Assembly (NCBI GenBank): GCA_016199105.1 | Contig: JACQHI010000056.1 | Location: 1 to 27,261 of the forward strand | Source of the DNA: Lentisphaerota bacterium | GTDB lineage: Bacteria; Verrucomicrobiota; Kiritimatiellia; JAAZAB01 | DNA: 27,261 nucleotides | Direction: 5' to 3' | Part shown: positions 3,131 through 11,640 of the stretch, piece by piece | Layout of the letters: each line of letters opens with the position of its first letter | How positions within the stretch are numbered: position 1 is the first letter of the stretch | Program-made: the position numbers and the translations under genes | Notes under the pieces: generated by a model | Databases searched by the model: none | Seen by the model: only the letters and a program-made list of their open reading frames with translations | Told to the model about the DNA's origin: nothing

Positions 3131-4402
3131 ATGGTTAAGAAAAACCAGTCCGGGTGTTCGTTTTGCGGCCGCATTCCGTCCCAGGTTCGCCAGATGATCG
3201 GGGGGCCCGGCGTTCAAATCTGCGATATCTGCGTGGAGCTGTGCCGGGGAATCATCGAACAGGAGGCATCCAAGTCGCGAGGGCAGGACAGCCGCAGTCT
3301 GAAAGTGCCCAAGCCGCATGAGATCAAGGCCTTTCTCGACGATTATGTGATCGGCCAGGAGCACGCGAAAAAGGCCCTGTCGGTGGCGGTCTATAATCAT
3401 TACAAGCGCTTGACCCAGGACGCCCATTTCGCCAAGGACGATCCGCTCGCGCCCGTCGAGCTCCAAAAAAGCAACATTCTGCTCATCGGTCCGACGGGCT
3501 GCGGCAAGACCCTGTTCGCTCAGACTCTGGCGCGCCTGTTGGACGTGCCCTTCAGTATTTCCGACGCCACCCCGTTGACGGAAGCCGGTTATGTGGGCGA
3601 AGACGTCGAAAACGTCCTGCTCCGTCTCATCCAGGCGGCCAACGGGGACGTGGCCCGGGCGGAAAAAGGCATTATTTACATCGATGAAATCGACAAAATA
3701 GCCCGGAAAGCGGACAATGTGTCGATCACCCGCGATGTGTCCGGCGAGGGCGTTCAGCAGGCGCTGTTGAAGATTCTGGAAGGCACGGTGGCCAATGTCC
3801 CCCAGCACGGGGGCCGGAAACATCCGCAGGAGGAATATCTCAAGATCAAGACCGACGGAATCCTGTTTGTCTGCGGCGGCGCCTTCGTGGGGTTGGAGGA
3901 GATCGTCAAGCGGCGTATCGGCGTCAAGACCATCGGCTTTCACGATGAGGCCGATCAGGACGATAAAAACAAACTGGTCCGGCACGCCCATGGAAAATCC
4001 GTGCTGCCGGCGGTCGAGCCCGAGGATTTGATCAAGTTCGGGCTCATCCCCGAATTCGTGGGGCGCCTGCCGGTCGTCGTGGCCCTGGATGAATTGAGCG
4101 AAGCCGATTTGATCCGCGTGCTGACGGAACCCCGGAACAGCATGGTCCGGCAATACGAGAAACTGATGGCCATGGAGGGCATCAAGCTGACATTCACGCT
4201 GACGGCCCTGAAGGAGCTGGCCCGGCTGGCGATGAAGAAGAAGACCGGCGCCCGGGGTCTGCGGGCGATTCTCGAGCATGTCATGCTCGACATCATGTAT
4301 GAGGCGCCGATGAAGAAGAACGTCAAGGAATGCCAGATCACGAAGGCGGTCATTGACGGGCACACCACGGGCCTGGATGTGGCGGAGGTCAAAATCGCGT
4401 AG
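3131..4402 (+). CDS. clpX: ATP-dependent Clp protease ATP-binding subunit ClpX
   Basis: C4 zinc finger (CSFC...CDICVELC), Walker [13 protein letters not shown] pore loop, GGRKHP, IGF loop, GARGLR. GGAGG 5 nt before ATG 3131. Confidence 0.98.
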
Positions 4403-4411
4403 GACGTCCGA

Positions 4412-4777
4412 TCAGATCTTCTTGAGCGGGCCGTCCGGCTTGTTGTTTTCGTCCAGCGCCAGAACCAGGGGCCGTTGATGTCGCGCCTCATCGGCGGGAA
4501 CGACGGCAAAGGAAAAGATGATGATCGAGTCCCCGACCGCGCCCAGGTGGGCCGTGGCGCCGTTCAGGCAGATGACGCCGGACCCCGCTTTCCCGGGTAT
4601 GGCATAGGTTTCAAACCGGTTGCTGTTGTTCAGATTGGCCACCAGCACTTTTTCGTACGGCAGCAATTTGACGGCATCCATCAAATCGCGGTCGATGGTC
4701 AGGCTGCCTTCATAGTCCAGCGCGGTCTCCGTGACCCGGGCCTTGTGCAGCTTGGATTTCAACATGATGGAAAACAT
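4412..4777 (-). CDS. panD: Aspartate 1-decarboxylase proenzyme
   Basis: MLKSKLH, self-cleavage site YEG|S, RFETY, ICLNGA. Start moved to ATG 4777 (MFSIMLKSK). Confidence 0.95.
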   Translation of the reverse strand: MFSIMLKSKLHKARVTETALDYEGSLTIDRDLMDAVKLLPYEKVLVANLNNSNRFETYAIPGKAGSGVICLNGATAHLGAVGDSIIIFSFAVVPADEARHQRPLVLALDENNKPDGPLKKI

Positions 4778-4901
4778 CGTCACCCTCCGGATTCGCCGTC
4801 TGAAAAGGCTTCGCAAAGAGGTCCTTTTATAGCACTCGCCGGACAAAGTCAATGAAAAGCAACTGCCCTCCCGAACACTGAACACTTGCTGAGTCGTCAC
4901 A

Positions 4902-6536
4902 ATGAAAGCAACCATACGCCGTCGGGCTAAACCGGCGAAGCTGCTTCTGTTGGCGCTGGTTGGGTTTTGTCTGGCCCTGGGTTCCGTTGGCGCCGGCGAC
5001 GTCGCCGTGACGGTGCTCTATACGGCCGACGTACACGGGTCGATCCTGCCCATCGAGTATTACGAAGGGATGGAGCATGCGGGCGGGCTGTTGCGTTGCG
5101 CCACCGTGATCCGGCGGGAACGCGAGCTCGATCCGGAGCTGTTGCTTCTGGATGGAGGGGATTTGTTCCAGGGCTCGATCGAGAGCTATCAAACGCGGGG
5201 GCAGATCGTCATTCAGGCGGTGAATGCCCTGCGCTACGATGCCTTGATCCCGGGCAACCACGAGTTCGACTGGGGTGTCGCAAATTTGCGGGCTTTCTAT
5301 GCCGGCACCACGATTCCCGTGGTGGCGGCGAATATCGGGGCCGACCCTCCGGAAAGCCGGCCGCCCGGAAAGTGCGTCCCGTTTATCGTCAAAACCGTTC
5401 GTGGCGTTCGCGTGGCCATCGTGGGCTTGACCACCCCGCACATCCCCCGCTGGAGCCGGCCGCGATTGCTCGGCGCGCTGACGTTCCAGCGCTCCCTCGA
5501 GGCGCTTCAGCGGGTCATGCCGGAGGTGCGCCAACGGAAACCCGATATCCTGATTCTGGCGGCGCACCAGGGCTTCCGGGACTATGGCGACGACACCGCA
5601 AACGAGATCAATGCCATCGCCCGGAGTTTTCCGGAATTCGATCTTATTCTGGGCGCGCATACGCATCGCAACGTCGAGACCGCGGAGTTGAACGGCGTCC
5701 TGTATTCCCAGCCGGGCCCCTATGGCATCTGGTTCGACAAGATCCGTCTCGTGTACGATCCTCAAGCGCGCCGCATCCTGTCCAAGCAGTGCGAGATTAT
5801 AACGGTGGATGCCTCGTTCAAACAGGACGCCGAATTGAAAAAGCTGTTGGCCGCGGGTTTGGAGGAAGCCGAAGACATGGCCGAGGAGGATGTCGGCTGG
5901 GCGGATGAAAAACAGACCCCGACCTCCGAGTTCCCGGGCCAATCGTCCATCCAGACGCTGATCGCCAAGTCCATCGCGGAAGCGGTGCCGGCCGACGTGG
6001 TATTTCATGGCGCGCTGACACAGGCGGACTTGAGAAAAGGGCCCATCCGGGTGAAAGACATCTGGCGGATTGTGCCCTACGAGAACTCCATCGGCGTGGC
6101 CCACCTGACCCTGGACGAGTTGCGGCAGATTCTCGAGGAGAACAGCGCGTTTTACAAATCGCGGGGGGAAACCCGGGATTTTCGCGGCGTCCATGGCTTG
6201 ACGTACGCGCTGAACCCCAAGGCGCCCGCCGGTTCCAAGGTCAGCCGCCTCGTGTTGACCCACCGGCCGCCGCCGAAGGAGGGCGGACGGATCCGGGTGG
6301 CGTTCAACAGTTTTGACCTGGCCTCCGCGGGCGACCGGCTGAAGCGGTTGCGGGCGATCGTCGAGACACCCGAGGCGCGGCTTGAGGAAACCGATGTGGA
6401 TACGCGTTCCGCCGTGAAGGCCTATATCGAAGCGCATTCGCCGGTCCGGGAAGAGCCGCAGGAAGGCGCCGTGATCGTCCGCGGCAAAAAAGGAAAACGA
6501 TCGAAAGCGGATGACGAAACAGCCGGCGAGCGCTGA
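4902..6536 (+). CDS. Secreted 5'-nucleotidase / 2',3'-cyclic phosphodiesterase family metallophosphoesterase
   Basis: Basic plus hydrophobic signal peptide. Calcineurin-like motifs DVHG, GDLFQG, GNHEFD, GAHTH. C-terminal 5'-NT domain (IVPYENSI). Confidence 0.9.
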   Translation: MKATIRRRAKPAKLLLLALVGFCLALGSVGAGDVAVTVLYTADVHGSILPIEYYEGMEHAGGLLRCATVIRRERELDPELLLLDGGDLFQGSIESYQTRGQIVIQAVNALRYDALIPGNHEFDWGVANLRAFYAGTTIPVVAANIGADPPESRPPGKCVPFIVKTVRGVRVAIVGLTTPHIPRWSRPRLLGALTFQRSLEALQRVMPEVRQRKPDILILAAHQGFRDYGDDTANEINAIARSFPEFDLILGAHTHRNVETAELNGVLYSQPGPYGIWFDKIRLVYDPQARRILSKQCEIITVDASFKQDAELKKLLAAGLEEAEDMAEEDVGWADEKQTPTSEFPGQSSIQTLIAKSIAEAVPADVVFHGALTQADLRKGPIRVKDIWRIVPYENSIGVAHLTLDELRQILEENSAFYKSRGETRDFRGVHGLTYALNPKAPAGSKVSRLVLTHRPPPKEGGRIRVAFNSFDLASAGDRLKRLRAIVETPEARLEETDVDTRSAVKAYIEAHSPVREEPQEGAVIVRGKKGKRSKADDETAGER

Positions 6537-6601
6537 AATTGGCCGGGCCGGTTTCGCGAGATGCCGACTGCGATTGCCCTTACGGGGATGGCTGGAAGGT
6601 T

Positions 6602-8422
6602 ATGAACAAACGTCATTTAGTCTGTCGAAAGATGCCCTTGGTCTTGGGGTTCGCGTGGGTGTTATGGCTTTTTTTTCCCTCTCGTCCGGGGATTTCTCAG
6701 CCCCATGCGGTGCTGAGCTTTGAGGCTGTGTTGCGGCCCGATAACGCCTTGGAAGTCGTCGTGGATATCCGGGGGTCGGAGACGAATCCGCTGACCTATG
6801 CCGTGGATCTGGGCGGATTGGAGGGCATCCGGGACATTGGAGTCGAGGCCCTTGCGGAAACGGGCAGACAGAACGTCCCGTTTTCCATCACTCGTTCGGG
6901 CCGGACTTGCGTGATTTCATGGGGATCGCCTCCCGCGCAATCACCGGGCGGTTTTCGTCTGCGTTATGTGCTCCTGGGGGTGGTCGGTCGGGGGGAGCGC
7001 TCCGACGAGTTCAACTGGAACATGCTGAGTGGATTTCAGGAGTTCTTCTGTGATTACGTCAAAGCCACGATCGCTGTTCCCGCTTACGTCTCGAAAGAAG
7101 CATCGCCGGTCATCGTTCGTTCCGGGGCCGAAGTGACGCGTTGCCAGAAGACGCTTGGACAACTGAAGATTGAAGCGGTGATTGTGCCGCCCGGATCCCC
7201 TCTGGGGGTCCAATGTCGGTTGTCGGGAGTTGTGGAGGGCCGTTTTTTCTGGAACCGGTTTATGAAGACCGTGGGCGGAACGGCTCTGATGTTGTTCCTT
7301 CCGCTGGCGGTGTTCGGCGTCCTTTTTCCCGTCTATTGGCTTCGCGGGCGGGATCCGCATTTGCGGCCGTTCGAGGCGGAGGACTCCCGGCCTCCGGAGG
7401 CGATCACCCCTGAAGTGGCCGCAGCCATCCGGTCCGAGCATGTCGAAACGCGGGATATCCTGGCGGCGGCGGTGGACCTTGCCCGCCTCGGGTTTCTGAA
7501 ACTCACGCTGACGGGGGCCGAGCCGGCCCGGATAACGGAAGTGCGCGTCGAGGCGGTCCGCTCGTTCGAGTCGCTTCCCCCGGCCAGGAGAGCGATCGCG
7601 GAGTTGATGACGCGGGCGGCGGATGCGTCGTTAACCCGTGCGTTCTCAGTCGAAAAATGCGCGCCACGTTCGGAGGTGGAAGAGGCGCGGGAAAAAGTCT
7701 ATGCCCAGGCGGTCCGCGACGGTTTCTTTCGCGCCGATCCGGAGATGGAACGGTGGGCCTATTCGATGGCCGGAGTGGTGTTTCTGGGAATCGGCGCCTG
7801 CTTTCTGGCCTCCGGGTCCGTCTCCTGGACGCTCTTGGCCTGCGCAACGGGTTTTCTCATGGCGTCTATGGCGGCGGGGCTGCAGGCCGCGAGGACGGGC
7901 CGGGTCTGGATCCGTGTGTTGCTGTTCGGCGCGGCGATGGTCTGCCTGAGTGGCGGTTTGCTCCTGATCGCTGCGAATCCGGACAAAATGCTCGTAACAT
8001 GGACAGCCAAGGTGGGCTGGGGCCTTGGGCTCGCGGCCGGCGTGTTCTTTTGCTTCTCGCCGCTGATGCCGCAGAGGACCGTGAGGGGCGCGGCCGAAAA
8101 ATCGCGCCTGATCGCCTACAAAACCCATCTCAAGTCGCTTCGATTGGAGGATCTGGACGCCGCCGGGCTCCAAGGGGAATTCGAGCGGGGACTGCCGTTT
8201 GCCGTGGTGTTTCGATATCGGAAGGAATGGATCAACCGCTTCGCCGCATGCGGCGCGTTGACGCCAGCCTGGTGGACCACGGAGATGGCATCCGCTTCGG
8301 ACGGAACTCTAACCGGTCAGAATTCCTGTACGCTTTTGCGGAATCGGGAGCCCTTCATCGAGACGTTGAGTATTCTTTCGTCCGCGTTGGGGGAGTCGCC
8401 CGAAGCGGGAGTGGGCGGCTGA
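6602..8422 (+). CDS. DUF2207-family membrane protein
   Basis: Signal-peptide-like start at 6602, DEFNWN, TM followed by GRDP, AAAVDLARLGFL, several TM helices, MPQRTVRG, FERGLPFA...W..F, PAWW. These follow the DUF2207 (PF09972) motif order as I recall it. Confidence 0.8.
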   Translation: MNKRHLVCRKMPLVLGFAWVLWLFFPSRPGISQPHAVLSFEAVLRPDNALEVVVDIRGSETNPLTYAVDLGGLEGIRDIGVEALAETGRQNVPFSITRSGRTCVISWGSPPAQSPGGFRLRYVLLGVVGRGERSDEFNWNMLSGFQEFFCDYVKATIAVPAYVSKEASPVIVRSGAEVTRCQKTLGQLKIEAVIVPPGSPLGVQCRLSGVVEGRFFWNRFMKTVGGTALMLFLPLAVFGVLFPVYWLRGRDPHLRPFEAEDSRPPEAITPEVAAAIRSEHVETRDILAAAVDLARLGFLKLTLTGAEPARITEVRVEAVRSFESLPPARRAIAELMTRAADASLTRAFSVEKCAPRSEVEEAREKVYAQAVRDGFFRADPEMERWAYSMAGVVFLGIGACFLASGSVSWTLLACATGFLMASMAAGLQAARTGRVWIRVLLFGAAMVCLSGGLLLIAANPDKMLVTWTAKVGWGLGLAAGVFFCFSPLMPQRTVRGAAEKSRLIAYKTHLKSLRLEDLDAAGLQGEFERGLPFAVVFRYRKEWINRFAACGALTPAWWTTEMASASDGTLTGQNSCTLLRNREPFIETLSILSSALGESPEAGVGG

Positions 8423-8465
8423 AGGGAACAACATCGGCGCGGTTGACACAAGGAGAATGGTCTTC

Positions 8466-9293
8466 ATGCCTGGTTTTCTGAATATCCGCGACAATACCTG
8501 CATGATTTCGCCATATGAGGCCGCCTTCGAACTGGTCAAAAACAACCGGGGCGAATACGGCGATGTGTGCGTGACGCTTTCGATCGCCTACCGGGTGTTC
8601 GACGCGCCGAAATCCGAGGGGTTCAAGTTTGTCGGCGAGGCGCCGGTGGACGACATCTCCGTTTCGGATGGTCAAGACCGTCCGCTGAAATGGACTCGCG
8701 TCCAAATGCGCGAGACCCGTCTCGAATGGAAGTTTGTGCAGCCGGTGCGCAACAACGAGACAACGGTGGTGGCGCGTTTCAGGATTCGCGATGCCCTGGA
8801 AGAAGAGACGGGCGGCAACGTGTTCACGGCGCCGTGGGTGGGGAATTTCAGGGTGCCGGTGTCGCGGGTGGTTTATCGCTTTATCTTCCCCGCCGGCTTC
8901 CGGCCGACGCGGACCGTGGTGAACGGGAGGCCGGCAAAAATGAAAACGTCGGCCGATGGCCGGACTGTCGCCGAACAGGGCTATGAGTCGCCGCCCGCCG
9001 GCGGGTTCTGTGTCCGATTTTCTCCGGCGATGGGCCGGCCGCCGTCATGGAAAAAACCGGCTGGTCCCGGAAGAGGCGGCAAGGCCAAACCGTCGAATCC
9101 CCTTTTCTCTTTGTTGGCTATTCTGGGTTTTATCCTGCTGTGGAACCTGTCCCATTGCGATAAAAAAGGCGGGGGGACGTCGGGGAAGGGGGGCGGTTGT
9201 GCCACTTCCGTGGGCGATTTCGGCGGGTCGTCCGGATGTTCGAGTTGTTCCAGTTGCGGAGGCTGTGGCGGGTGTGGAGGCTGTGGCGGGTAG
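8466..9293 (+). CDS. Single-TM membrane protein with DUF2207-like N-domain and C-terminal Cys/Gly-rich tail (candidate radical SAM target)
   Basis: AGGAG 10 nt before ATG 8466 (alternative ATG 8457). Beta-rich N-domain (W..NFRVPVSRVVYRFIFP), TM LFSLLAILGFILLW, tail ending GCSSCSSCGGCGGCGGCGG. DUF2207 kinship of the N-domain is by eye. Confidence 0.75.
   Translation: MPGFLNIRDNTCMISPYEAAFELVKNNRGEYGDVCVTLSIAYRVFDAPKSEGFKFVGEAPVDDISVSDGQDRPLKWTRVQMRETRLEWKFVQPVRNNETTVVARFRIRDALEEETGGNVFTAPWVGNFRVPVSRVVYRFIFPAGFRPTRTVVNGRPAKMKTSADGRTVAEQGYESPPAGGFCVRFSPAMGRPPSWKKPAGPGRGGKAKPSNPLFSLLAILGFILLWNLSHCDKKGGGTSGKGGGCATSVGDFGGSSGCSSCSSCGGCGGCGGCGG
9237..9290 (+). repeat. Tandem duplications encoding the (Cxx)6 tail
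   Basis: 9-bp units 9237-9245 and 9246-9254 match at 8/9; 18-bp units 9255-9272 and 9273-9290 match at 17/18. Confidence 0.85.
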
Positions 9294-9300
9294 CCCGACA

Positions 9301-10380
9301 ATGGCCGTGTTCAATCCATCCGAAGCGTTTTTTCTGCAGTGGCACATCACCGACCGCTGCAATCTCCGGTGCACGCACTGTTACCGGACGGAGTCCAAGC
9401 AGGATTTGTCGCTTTCCGAACTGAGCGGCGTGTTCCGCAACTTTCTGCGCTTGCGCGAGGTCGTGCCGCAAGCCAAGGCCCGTGTCCAGTTGGCCGGCGG
9501 CGAGCCGTTGCTCTCGAACCATCTCTTTCCGGTTCTCGACATGATCGCGGAAGCCGGGCTGCAGTCGCGCATTCTGAGCAATGGCACTTTGATTGACCGC
9601 CCGATGGCGATGGGGATCAGGGCGCATGGGTGTCGTATCGTTCAGATCAGCCTGGAGGGGTCCCGCCCAACACACGATACGATCCGGGGGGACGGCGCAT
9701 TCGACCGCGCGATTGACGGCGCGCGCCGATTGCGCGAACAAGACATCCAGGTGACGTTTGCCATGACTTTGTCGCGCCAGACGGTGGATGACATTCCTGC
9801 CGTTCTGGAAATCGCCCGGACCCTGGCCAACCGGGTGGGTTTTCATCGACTGGTACCCTGTGGGACCGGACGCGCATTGGCCGATCGGATGCTGCGGCCG
9901 GCGGAAATTAAAAGGGCGTTTCGGCGGATATGGGAGTTCCGCAAGGCCCATCCCTCCATCGAAATACCGCTGCGCGATCCGCTGTGGAAGCCGTATCTTC
10001 GATGCGGTCATGCGGCGGACACGGTGAACGGGTGTTCCGCCGGTTATGCGGGGCTTTGCGTTGACGCGGATGGGAGTGTCTATCCGTGCCGCCGACTGCC
10101 GGTGTGTTTGGGAAATGCCGTTCAGGACTCCCTGATCGAGCTCTGGCGATCTCTTTTGATGGATCAATTGCGGAATCGCGACGGGCTGCGGGGGAAATGC
10201 GGAACGTGTCCCCTGCGCTGGGATTGCGGGGGGTGTCGGGCGATCCCGTTCGCGCTTACACAGGATCCGTTGGGCGAAGATCCCCAATGTTTCTTCAGAC
10301 CATCATGGCTTCAGAAGAAAATGATCGAGGCCATGTTCGCCCTGGAAGCCACGGCGAATCGCGGGGAGGGGGGCGGATAG
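9301..10380 (+). CDS. Radical SAM/SPASM domain protein
   Basis: CNLRCTHC (residues 20-27), GGEPLL, SNGTL, ISLEG. SPASM cysteines CSAG...C...G.VYPC...CGTC.....CGGC...DPQC. The ORF-track start 8956 overlaps the upstream gene, so ATG 9301 is preferred. Confidence 0.93.
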   Translation: MAVFNPSEAFFLQWHITDRCNLRCTHCYRTESKQDLSLSELSGVFRNFLRLREVVPQAKARVQLAGGEPLLSNHLFPVLDMIAEAGLQSRILSNGTLIDRPMAMGIRAHGCRIVQISLEGSRPTHDTIRGDGAFDRAIDGARRLREQDIQVTFAMTLSRQTVDDIPAVLEIARTLANRVGFHRLVPCGTGRALADRMLRPAEIKRAFRRIWEFRKAHPSIEIPLRDPLWKPYLRCGHAADTVNGCSAGYAGLCVDADGSVYPCRRLPVCLGNAVQDSLIELWRSLLMDQLRNRDGLRGKCGTCPLRWDCGGCRAIPFALTQDPLGEDPQCFFRPSWLQKKMIEAMFALEATANRGEGGG

Positions 10381-10383
10381 GCT

Positions 10384-11358
10384 CTAAAGCCATTTCTCCA
10401 GGAACGCCATGATTTCCGACCGCATGTGCGCGTTCTCGAAATGTCCGGTCGCATATCGCTTCATTTGCCAGGCATCCTTCGCTCCCAGCGACTCGTAGAC
10501 CTGTCTCAGGGCCTTGTCAATGCGATCCAGCCCGGCCGAAGGCGTGAGACGATCATAGTTGCCGGCGAGGCTTAAATGCCGCCGCGGGGCAATCAGCGCG
10601 TTGATTTGCGCGGTTGTGAAGTGCTTCAGGAGTGACGGTACATAGTAATAGATGCCGTGCTCATCGAGCCCCCGGGCTGAAATCAGGGCCTCGAAATCCG
10701 TCAGACAGCAGATGTCCACGCACACTTTGATCCGGGTATCCAACGCGGCGGTCCACCAAGCCATGGTGCTGCCCATGGACAGCCCGATCGTTCCAATTCG
10801 TTGCCCGTCGACGTCGGGGCGCGCGGCGAGATAATCCAGGGCTCGCAGGTTGTCATAGACCATCATCCCCCAGAGGACCCGGCCTTTCCAGAGCATCTCC
10901 TTGAAGACTTCGGACTCCGACCGTCCGCGCCGTTCGCCGAAAACCCAGGTGTCGATGCACAGCGCTCCCCAGCCTTTGGCGGTGAGCTGTTTTGCGTAGG
11001 GTGGCGTGCAAAGCGCCTCCCGGCCCAAAAGCAATTCGTCCTTGCCCAGGACGTAGTTGCCTCCGTGGGCATGATTGTAGAGCAGGCAGGGCATGCGTGG
11101 GCCGGCATTCCTGGATTTGACAAAGTAGGCCGGCACGGATTCGATGCCGTTCAGGTCCAAAAGAAGTTTCTCCAGGATATAGCCGTCGCGCTCGCCCTGT
11201 TCCACCACCGTTGAACGAATCGGGCGATCCCTTTGGGGCAGGTCCCCGAGAAGGGCGTATAGTGCTTGCCGCTGCTTGTCTTGTTCGATGTCCAGTCCCA
11301 TGCGAATGGCGAGTTGCTTCTTGATCTGCTTGGCGTAAGGATTTCGGCGGCTCCTCAT
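10384..11358 (-). CDS. Dienelactone-hydrolase-like alpha/beta hydrolase
   Basis: Nucleophile elbow [25 protein letters not shown]-terminal TGH. Start either 11358 or 11301. The N-terminus appears chimeric (see findings). Confidence 0.85.
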
Positions 11359-11367
11359 TTTAGTCAG
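11287..11367 (-). pseudogene. BrnA-type (ribbon-helix-helix) antitoxin fragment fused in frame to the hydrolase
   Basis: [27 protein letters not shown] resembles the recalled family pattern DFSKMKSRKNPYAKxLKKQVTIRLGxDVI. The N-terminal MxxEY and the C-terminal GIPYQ..IN..L half are absent. Confidence 0.6.
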
Positions 11368-11425
11368 CACGAAGGAATTCACAACCATGACGTTCAAGAT
11401 GACGGATGAGGTCTCGCCTCTTCAT
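11360..11425 (-). pseudogene. hicA: Truncated HicA toxin (21 aa remnant)
   Basis: Own translation: [21 protein letters not shown], a typical HicA N-terminus. ATG overlaps the hicB TGA (TGATG). Stops before the catalytic His region. Confidence 0.8.
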
Positions 11426-11640
11426 CAGGATGGGATAAGAAAGGGTTCACGTATGACTTTTTGCCCGGCGATGGACTCTTCGGCGAGTTGGCGATTGGCG
11501 TCTAGAATCAATTCCACGGCCTCGACCAGGTTTCTGCGAGTTTCGTCCAGATTCGCACCCTGAGTATTGGCTCCCGGCAATTCTTCAATGAATCCGACAT
11601 AGCCAGCGGGAACTTCTTGGAATACAGCGGTAAGTTTCAT
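11425..11640 (-). CDS. hicB: HicB-family antitoxin (short form)
   Basis: MKLTAVFQEVPAGYVGFIEELPGANTQGANLDETRRNLVEAVELIL matches the HicB partial RNase-H fold pattern. AAAGGAA SD. Lower GC (26/60 in line 11581-11640). Confidence 0.88.
   Translation of the reverse strand: MKLTAVFQEVPAGYVGFIEELPGANTQGANLDETRRNLVEAVELILDANRQLAEESIAGQKVIREPFLIPS

Follow-up and report, generated by a model that had tools for sequence, protein, structure and literature searches.

Two adjacent genes of a Lentisphaerota bacterium (assembly GCA_016199105.1) probably form a maturation cassette, to judge from their sequences. They lie on the forward strand of contig JACQHI010000056.1, of which positions 1 to 27,261 were analysed; this whole stretch of 27,261 nucleotides is called the window. 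The first gene (8466-9293) encodes a membrane-anchored protein with a Cys-laddered C-terminal tail, here named the carrier. The second gene (9301-10380) encodes a radical S-adenosylmethionine (SAM)/SPASM enzyme, which would modify the Cys residues of the tail independently of O2. The pairing of enzyme and tail is specific, conserved, and co-inherited. Cys maturation of the kind found in RiPPs (peptides made on the ribosome and modified after translation) is itself known; what would be new is its occurrence on the tail of a membrane protein, carried out by an uncurated clade of SPASM enzymes. Neither the carrier nor the enzyme is covered by an NCBIfam model, and a full-text literature search found no paper that gives Cys-tailed membrane proteins a radical SAM/SPASM enzyme as partner.

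The Cys ladder, CSSCSSCGGCGGCGGCGG, occupies residues 258-275 of the carrier (positions 9237-9290). It forms the very end of the protein, whose C-terminus reads ...LFSLLAILGFILLWNLSHCDKKGGGTSGKGGGCATSVGDFGGSSGCSSCSSCGGCGGCGGCGG before the stop codon. The segment after the hydrophobic stretch is SHCDKKGGGTSGKGGGCATSVGDFGGSSGCSSCSSCGGCGGCGGCGG. It contains eight Cys, of which the last six keep a strict register of 3 residues, just as the earlier note on this sequence had read it. The residue before each ladder Cys is Gly or Ser without exception. Among 23 homologues at 29-47% identity, the terminal Cys-Gly is invariant and three more ladder Cys are conserved at 90% or above. A six-frame scan of the genome assembly (2.9 Mb, 486 contigs, 59% complete) covered 11,957 stop-to-stop open reading frames (ORFs) of at least 100 aa, and exactly one of them, the carrier, had at least three consecutive C[GS][GS] units. 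Since the genome has a single such ORF, its place before a SPASM gene is no chance meeting of common features. The tail DNA amounts to only 2-3 copies of a short, imperfect 9-bp repeat (80-90% matches) with mixed synonymous codons, which indicates that the ladder is kept at the protein level. DNA slippage was rejected as the origin of the ladder, given these few imperfect copies, the mixed codons, and the conservation of the ladder as protein across phyla. A C-terminal sorting signal of the PEP-CTERM/GlyGly-CTERM type was also rejected, because the order here is transmembrane (TM) segment and then tail, not motif, TM segment and basic cluster.

The earlier note had asked whether the nearest homologues of the enzyme lack a Cys-rich neighbour. 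A profile of the enzyme was scanned against one genome per species (185,579 species), and 73 loci were obtained. Each locus was checked for an upstream ORF on the same strand whose C-terminus is rich in Gly/Ser/Cys and has a Cys ladder, and 69 enzymes were placed in a maximum-likelihood tree with IQ-TREE. The tree contained a tail-associated clade of 42 enzymes (support 100/98). The next upstream gene was a same-strand Cys-tailed ORF in 35 of the 42 clade loci (one of them, L002, is cut by the contig end), and the gap to the enzyme gene was 5-65 nt where the enzyme start was well defined. Four other loci had the Cys-tailed ORF within about 1.2 kb with one gene between, and three lay at a contig edge. 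All 39 assessable clade loci therefore have a Cys-tailed protein upstream. The window locus is one of these pairs, with its enzyme nested in the 100/98 clade and a same-strand ladder ORF 7 nt upstream. Among the 27 enzymes outside the clade, 24 had no tail neighbour, one was at a contig edge, and two Bacillota enzymes separate from the clade (L060 and L061) were paired with a tail, borne there on a 593-aa DUF2207-type protein.

The clade extends over 14 phyla: Planctomycetota, Elusimicrobiota, Auribacterota, Omnitrophota, Chloroflexota, Spirochaetota, Cyanobacteriota, Nitrospirota, Bacillota, Riflebacteria, Muiribacteriota, Verrucomicrobiota, Myxococcota, and Acidobacteriota. When all ORFs of the loci were clustered all against all, the enzyme and the carrier alone were conserved throughout. 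The window enzyme is sister to a Planctomycetota sequence and stands apart from both Verrucomicrobiota members of the clade, one of which apparently belongs to the same class as this genome. Of 41 related genomes, two gave the enzyme and the same two gave the carrier, namely this genome and one of the same class; there, too, the two genes are neighbours, with 30 nt between them. A search of 24 genomes of the same family found neither gene. The cassette looks accessory and horizontally moving.

The search was also run in reverse, starting from carrier homologues, including those on metagenome contigs, and looking for the partner gene. A partner was found in 11 loci. It was a radical SAM/SPASM gene in L080, L082 to L087, L090, and L091 (the carriers of L084 and L085 are those of L083 and L009 again). 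On two independent metagenome contigs, L079 (4851-5774) and L089 (3388-4185), an MNIO gene directly followed the homologue of the window carrier; MNIOs are iron enzymes that depend on oxygen. The MNIO of L079 carries PF05114, its best NCBIfam match is BufB (217 bits, cut-off 310), and a PF26136 SCO6045_C protein comes after it; that of L089 was identified solely by tblastn, at 39% identity to the L079 protein. For the carrier of L081, no partner was seen within 4 kb downstream, and its upstream view is limited to 0.5 kb. We regard the MNIO genes as non-orthologous replacements of the radical SAM enzyme, as read from the sequences. That two unrelated Cys-oxidising enzyme families of RiPP type occupy one slot is the strongest argument for the tail as the substrate and for comparable jobs of the two enzymes.

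The carriers beside the clade enzymes have at least five architectures, and the tail is the sole element that they share. A beta domain is common to 31 loci. It is combined with one TM segment in the window type, and 15 of the 31 have a multi-TM/TIGR04222 extension. Beta-domain carriers with the TIGR04222 multi-TM region occur in Magnetobacteriaceae (L024, 55.7 bits; cut-off 43), and carriers with TIGR04222 alone occur in L018, L036, L038, L040, and L051, all above the cut-off. L026 has a Zn-ribbon and a beta domain. The minimal carrier (L034:5811-5984, from a Muiribacteriota metagenome-assembled genome (MAG)) is a 57-aa ORF with little beyond a hydrophobic segment and its ladder of 12 Cys; it lies 16 nt ahead of a clade enzyme. 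The register of the tail follows the enzyme subclade: most of the clade shows a spacing of 3, the L038/L040/L051 subclade one of 4. In Nitrospirota, the tails have CxxC pairs and end with GGGGD. These data show that the tail, not the scaffold, is the constant element. The earlier proposal of a full-size membrane protein whose tail is the substrate gains from this, as it does from the MNIO that replaces the enzyme. Its link to TIGR04222 was borne out for the system, since six sister-locus carriers (the five above and L024) pass the cut-off with 47.6-82.6 bits, and failed for the window carrier. TIGR04222 calls for at least 43 bits over a multi-TM domain of 229 positions, with a low-complexity Gly/Ser/Cys tail behind it; the window carrier has the tail and one TM segment, and the model does not match it. 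In Elusimicrobiota locus L008, two tandem Cys-tailed carrier genes (4137-5093 and 4769-5989) stand before a single radical SAM gene.

The most plausible start of the window carrier is ATG 8466, and its stop is TAG 9291-9293 on the + strand. ATG 8466 was preferred because the Shine-Dalgarno sequence AAGGAG (8450-8455) lies 10 nt before it; the alternative in-frame ATG 8457 was rejected as too close to AAGGAG. The 275-aa product matched zero Pfam or NCBIfam models (none to TIGR04222 at E <= 0.01). A search of 5.8 billion proteins gave 17 relatives at 29-45% identity, and every full-length relative among them has a Cys/Gly(/Ser) tail at its C-terminus. An AlphaFold2 model was built with an alignment of 23 homologous sequences. 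Foldseek matched the predicted beta domain with the one at the N-terminus of M1 aminopeptidases (ERAP1, E 4e-8; LTA4H, TMq 0.47) and with a chain of an oligosaccharyltransferase (OST) subunit. The leads from a language-model search were PF09972 DUF2207 (0.85) and Ribophorin I. Among carrier relatives, PF09972 (gathering score 24.4) appears in the precomputed annotation of homologue P0006 and in the L060 carrier (2.5e-5). The comparison of the window carrier with the upstream DUF2207 family by hhalign was not significant (probability 1.5%, E 0.035). Neither the TIGR04222 nor the DUF2207 model matches the window carrier, and what was kept is a DUF2207-N/ribophorin-like fold of the beta domain, as a lead from the modelled structure and the language-model search.

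The enzyme starts with ATG 9301 and reads MAVFNPSEAFFLQWHITDRCNLRCTHCY; the earlier placement of a radical SAM/SPASM gene 7 nt after the carrier stop was thus confirmed. Profile searches that the earlier note had suggested place the enzyme in the radical SAM family by PF04055 (67.4 bits, E 2.2e-18; gathering score 29.5) and assign it a SPASM domain by PF13186 (40.6 bits, E 3.2e-10, residues 245-304; gathering score 21.5). The seven invariant SPASM Cys would be enough for two auxiliary [4Fe-4S] clusters, which gives three clusters together with that of the radical SAM motif. An N-terminal RiPP recognition element (RRE) or PqqD domain has no room, because the radical SAM motif begins at residue 20, and a Pfam search found no PqqD domain in the enzyme.

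Against curated NCBIfam (release 20), the enzyme scored below all family cut-offs. The top match by score was AhbD (TIGR04545; 173 bits, cut-off 500), covering residues 12-217 only, with NirJ2 at 143 bits (cut-off 500), NirJ at 123, and NirJ1 at 109 (cut-offs in the AhbD/NirJ families are 500-650). The best full-length match was SbtM (TIGR04082; 165 bits, cut-off 350), which aligns residues 5-331 with profile positions 194-516. SbtM is also the best full-length match of the L024, L060, and L082 enzymes (162-188 bits including the window enzyme). The ACGX radical SAM model (TIGR04340), also named by the earlier note, gave 160 bits and GeoRSP (TIGR04303) 145, each with a cut-off of 400. The nearest solved structures are remote (SkfB, 64 bits; PqqE, 50 bits), and the PapB, StsB, SkfB, and AlbA models match weakly. 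Ten genomes of outgroup loci contained no TIGR04082 or TIGR04340 sequence above cut-off, so the clade is placed in relation to characterised enzymes by scores of hidden Markov models (HMMs) only. An AhbD/NirJ identity was rejected, since the scores are far under the curated cut-offs and AhbD covers only the N-terminal half. The grouping with heme d1/Ahb enzymes that the earlier note had named as contrary to its proposal was therefore not observed. By these scores, we assign the enzyme to an uncurated SPASM lineage that is not a heme or heme d1 enzyme.

We consider it very probable that the enzyme modifies the tail. The enzyme would be cytoplasmic, hold three [4Fe-4S] clusters, and act without an RRE on the flexible Gly/Ser/Cys tail that follows the TM helix. 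It would abstract hydrogen from tail Cys or neighbouring residues and modify them, so that the ladder Cys could be modified without need for O2. If the tail is modified, a four-electron oxidation of each Gly/Ser-Cys unit to a 5-thio-oxazole is, by analogy with SbtM (radical SAM) and BufB (MNIO), a possible outcome, somewhat short of an even chance; the product would then be a membrane-tethered tail that binds soft metal (Cu). Crosslinks of the S-C-alpha/C-beta thioether type are unlikely as the product, and chemistry that is neither of the two is unlikely to the same degree. Thio-oxazoles are placed slightly ahead of thioethers because of the MNIO replacement and the Gly/Ser-only context. Tentatively, and again by analogy, anaerobes may use a dedicated radical SAM/SPASM enzyme to build thio-oxazole (or related) heterocycles on Gly/Ser-Cys ladders of full-size membrane-protein tails, by a route that is independent of O2 and isofunctional with the MNIO/bufferin chemistry.

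Several points weigh against this proposal. The chemistry is extrapolated from weak similarity, because SbtM reaches 165 of 350 bits and its N-terminal region of about 190 aa is missing here. The nearest solved structure, SkfB, is a thioether former (64 bits). An RRE or other recognition element is not present. A search of this genome (59% complete) did not find the NTase (nucleotidyltransferase)-like gene that many other loci have, and metal-homeostasis genes do not recur in the neighbourhoods of the loci. A weak point in favour of the proposal, as MNIO is rare anyway, is that no MNIO (PF05114) gene turned up in this genome or in five more that carry the pair, which fits an O2-independent substitute. 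Predictions of topology, from signal peptides and hydrophobic segments, conflict between carrier types. The enzyme has to work in the cytoplasm. A cytoplasmic tail is predicted for carriers that have a signal peptide and one TM segment (Anaerolineae, Omnitrophota, Verrucomicrobiota, and several metagenome homologues), but the Magnetobacteriaceae carriers, which seem to have about four TM segments after the signal peptide, would place it outside. The window carrier and its Elusimicrobiota/Planctomycetota relatives have no signal peptide, and none lies in frame upstream of the window carrier.

In carriers that have no signal peptide (window 8466-8510, P0001-P0005, L004, L005, L007, and L009), a Cys that lies 3-4 residues ahead of the first beta strand is conserved (xxC-x-ISPY). 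This position is Tyr in the carriers that do have one.

The same maturase and substrate could instead yield thioethers, either sactionines (S-C-alpha to Gly/Ser) or ranthionines (S-C-beta to Ser), and the result would be a protease- and redox-resistant tail with a knotted structure. The earlier note had this chemistry in mind. Thioethers are the usual product of characterised SPASM enzymes acting on Cys-rich substrates, the sactisynthase SkfB and the weakly matching PapB, StsB, and AlbA models point the same way, and the SPASM enzyme CrpC makes ranthionines on the full-size Cys-rich protein CrpA (PMC13692751). However, the only acceptors in the ladder are Gly and Ser, and its (CGG)n parts offer just Gly C-alpha. 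In full-length comparison, the thioether families score under SbtM, ACGX, and GeoRSP. The enzyme also lacks an RRE, unlike CrpC and most sacti-/ranthi-synthases, and the alternative occupant of the slot is a BufB-like MNIO whose characterised relatives form thio-oxazoles (PMC12452194). Taken as a whole, a thioether-forming pair seems distinctly unlikely to us.

Modification of the tail also has to be weighed against readings in which the tail is not the substrate. Unmodified Cys/Gly ladders are able to bind soft metals or clusters, and the enzyme has no peptide recognition domain; working jointly with the radical SAM enzyme, the tail might be a metallothionein-like ligand of metal or Fe-S, a donor of sulfur or clusters, or a membrane dock, and the substrate of the enzyme a small molecule or another protein. 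Such a role would leave unexplained why radical SAM/SPASM and MNIO alternate beside homologous carriers, why the register tracks the enzyme subclade, and why a 57-aa stub of TM segment and tail suffices as the neighbour. The loci share no third conserved gene that could supply another substrate, and an unmodified binding tail does not account for a dedicated, replaceable enzyme. We regard this role, which the earlier note gave in its metal or Fe-S form as the alternative, as very improbable. The adjacency might even be incidental, with an AhbD/NirJ-like tetrapyrrole or other cofactor enzyme standing beside the low-complexity end of a DUF2207-like protein. AhbD does top the NCBIfam list by score, and low-complexity tails are frequent in DUF2207 and TIGR04222 proteins. 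Yet the AhbD match is partial and far under its cut-off of 500, the pairing holds in 39 of 39 assessable loci and 14 phyla with only two genes conserved, and relatives have either both the enzyme and the carrier or neither. At 29-47% overall identity, moreover, conservation extends to the terminal Cys-Gly and the ladder Cys. An incidental adjacency is hardly credible, and the conservation data effectively refute it.

The positions of the cassette, its parts, and the neighbouring genes are listed in the table below.

Table. Coordinates of the cassette, its domains, flanking genes, and NTase-like genes of other loci (window positions unless a locus is given)
Feature	Position	Strand	Basis
Carrier gene, 275-aa membrane-anchored protein with Cys/Gly/Ser C-terminal tail (proposed substrate)	8466..9293	+	ORF and Shine-Dalgarno sequence; 17 homologues
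All-beta N-domain of carrier, residues ~11-190	8496..9035	+	AlphaFold2, pLDDT (the model's own estimate of its local distance difference test) ~97
Single TM helix of carrier, residues 212-230	9099..9155	+	AlphaFold2 helix and Kyte-Doolittle hydrophobic segment
Disordered tail of carrier, residues 233-275, eight Cys	9162..9290	+	pLDDT < 50
Radical SAM/SPASM enzyme, 359 aa (proposed tail maturase)	9301..10380	+	PF04055, PF13186, clade with Cys-tailed neighbours
CxxxCxxC radical SAM motif, C20/C24/C27	9358..9381	+	Invariant in 30 homologues
SPASM region, C245/C263/C300/C303/C309/C312/C330	10033..10290	+	Invariant columns of alignment A1 (30 homologues)
Upstream full-length DUF2207 membrane protein	6539..8422	+	PF20990 2.9e-15, weak PF09972 match
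UshA/5'-nucleotidase-like metallophosphoesterase	4902-6536	+	Stop 2 nt before DUF2207 ORF
Alpha/beta hydrolase, convergent	10384-11397	opposite to cassette	Flanking gene
NTase-like genes	L012:2364-3116, L079:3197-3964, L080:3021-3773, L082:200-958, L083:1606-2367		Alignment A4

In the upstream DUF2207 ORF, the candidate start ATG 6602 would give MNKRHLVCRKMPLVLGFAWVLWLFF, a putative hydrophobic N-terminus. A homologue of this gene occurs in the same position only in Elusimicrobiota L003, L004, L007, L008, and L009 and in metagenome contig L086, and the gene is a lineage-specific companion, not a core part of the cassette. The metallophosphoesterase and the alpha/beta hydrolase do not recur by the cassette in other genomes. 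A promoter and terminator scan of 4500-11600 gave nothing usable. An NTase-like gene of about 255 aa accompanies the carrier in many loci, with either a radical SAM or an MNIO partner. Its product has a GS...SDxN motif and matches PF01909 (3e-5) and, by PDB profile, ANT(3'')(9) (1.4e-4). It may be a third component of the cassette. No third gene is conserved in all loci, the NTase-like and full-length DUF2207 genes each being lineage-restricted.

Some other genes of the loci were also recorded. In Magnetobacteriaceae-type Nitrospirota, a lineage-specific membrane protein follows the cassette (L022:6891-9044, with homologues in L029, L031, L032, and L035); it has about 710 aa and weakly resembles PMT_2 glycosyltransferases. 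In a Muribaculaceae MAG (L058:~5820-6004), a small Cys-rich peptide ending ...CKCGCGDCSCTGNSSSTKGCCG overlaps the start of a distant radical SAM/SPASM gene. It looks like an ordinary RiPP precursor and belongs to a sister lineage of the L060/L061 tail-associated pair. A Patescibacteria MAG (L055:9745-10098) has a 117-aa ORF of almost only Gly, Cys, Ala, and Ser, ending ...CGGGCGGCGCGGCGGGCG; a distant radical SAM/SPASM gene lies about 2.7 kb upstream of it.

Cys-tailed TIGR04222 and DUF2207-like membrane proteins number in the thousands, and their tails have long been seen as resembling RiPP precursors. A 2025 survey of MNIO linked this enzyme to only some Cys-tailed proteins (PMC12452194). 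A radical SAM/SPASM clade that always stands beside such tails and swaps with a BufB-like MNIO would be the missing partner for anaerobes. If the proposal is true, RiPP-type chemistry reaches the ends of full-size membrane proteins, one substrate has a second, O2-independent enzyme solution, and poorly studied anaerobic phyla possess a new membrane-tethered, probably metal-binding structure. If thio-oxazoles are the product, there would be a widespread class of membrane-tethered metal-binding tails built after translation, which would explain the many Cys-tailed TIGR04222 and DUF2207-like proteins that lack an MNIO partner.

The closest known system is the proposed pairing of MNIO (DUF692, PF05114) with Cys-tailed TIGR04222 membrane proteins (Microb Genom 2025, PMC12452194). 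One third of the genomes with TIGR04222 have no MNIO, and no alternative enzyme was named; radical SAM appears in that paper in the reference list only, with no link to TIGR04222 proteins (PMC12452194). The type of substrate is the same, a membrane protein with a disordered Gly/Ser/Cys tail next to a RiPP-type enzyme, and both six sister carriers that pass TIGR04222 and the BufB-like MNIO behind the window-carrier homologues of L079 and L089 connect the two systems. In contrast, the window carrier has no TIGR04222 domain, its genome has no PF05114, and its enzyme would be O2-independent, because it is a radical SAM/SPASM protein and not an MNIO.

SbtM, the best full-length curated match, converts a conserved Gly-Cys(Sec) (Sec, selenocysteine) to a thio(seleno)oxazole with a loss of 4 Da, and the sulfur can still be alkylated (PMC9204691). 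Its Gly-Cys target resembles the Gly/Ser-Cys ladder. However, the window enzyme falls outside SbtM by score and by architecture (516 positions), as the N-terminal region of about 190 aa is absent. The substrate of SbtM is a short Sec-containing peptide, whereas that of the window enzyme would be a 275-aa membrane protein with no Sec/SECIS features. Enzymes of the ACGX (TIGR04340 with an ACGX-repeat peptide) and GeoRSP systems are RRE-less SPASM proteins of similar length with Cys-repeat precursors, and an ACGX-like clade (L054, 290 bits) neighbours the tail-associated clade in the enzyme tree. The window enzyme does not reach their cut-offs, and in place of an A-C-G-X peptide, the repeat here is C-S-S/C-G-G and closes a membrane protein. 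To our knowledge, the ACGX and GeoRSP systems are themselves uncharacterised.

CrpC of Methanococcus voltae (TIGR04463) is a SPASM enzyme that makes ranthionines on the Cys-rich protein CrpA (PMC13692751, Sept 2026). It gives a precedent for a SPASM enzyme acting on a full-size, neighbour-encoded Cys-rich protein with Cys concentrated C-terminally. CrpC has an RRE, unlike the window enzyme, and CrpA is soluble, with 17-residue C-x-x-Q/D repeats and no membrane anchor. TIGR04463 is outside the 25 best NCBIfam matches of the window enzyme. The system described here is called RiPP-like and not a classical RiPP, because its precursor has 275 aa with a folded domain and a TM segment and there is no RRE/PqqD.

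Bufferins (BufA/BufB/BufC) are copper-binding RiPPs with thio-oxazoles made by MNIO (PMC11626156, PMC12452194). They are small soluble peptides exported by the Sec route with DUF2063 partners, whereas the Cys here stand on a membrane-tethered tail, and neither a DUF2063 protein nor copper genes were found near the cassette. The likeness is in the possible chemistry and function of the product, as Cys-derived, Cu-chelating thio-oxazoles may be formed in both, and the MNIO that stands beside a homologous carrier in L079 is closest to BufB.

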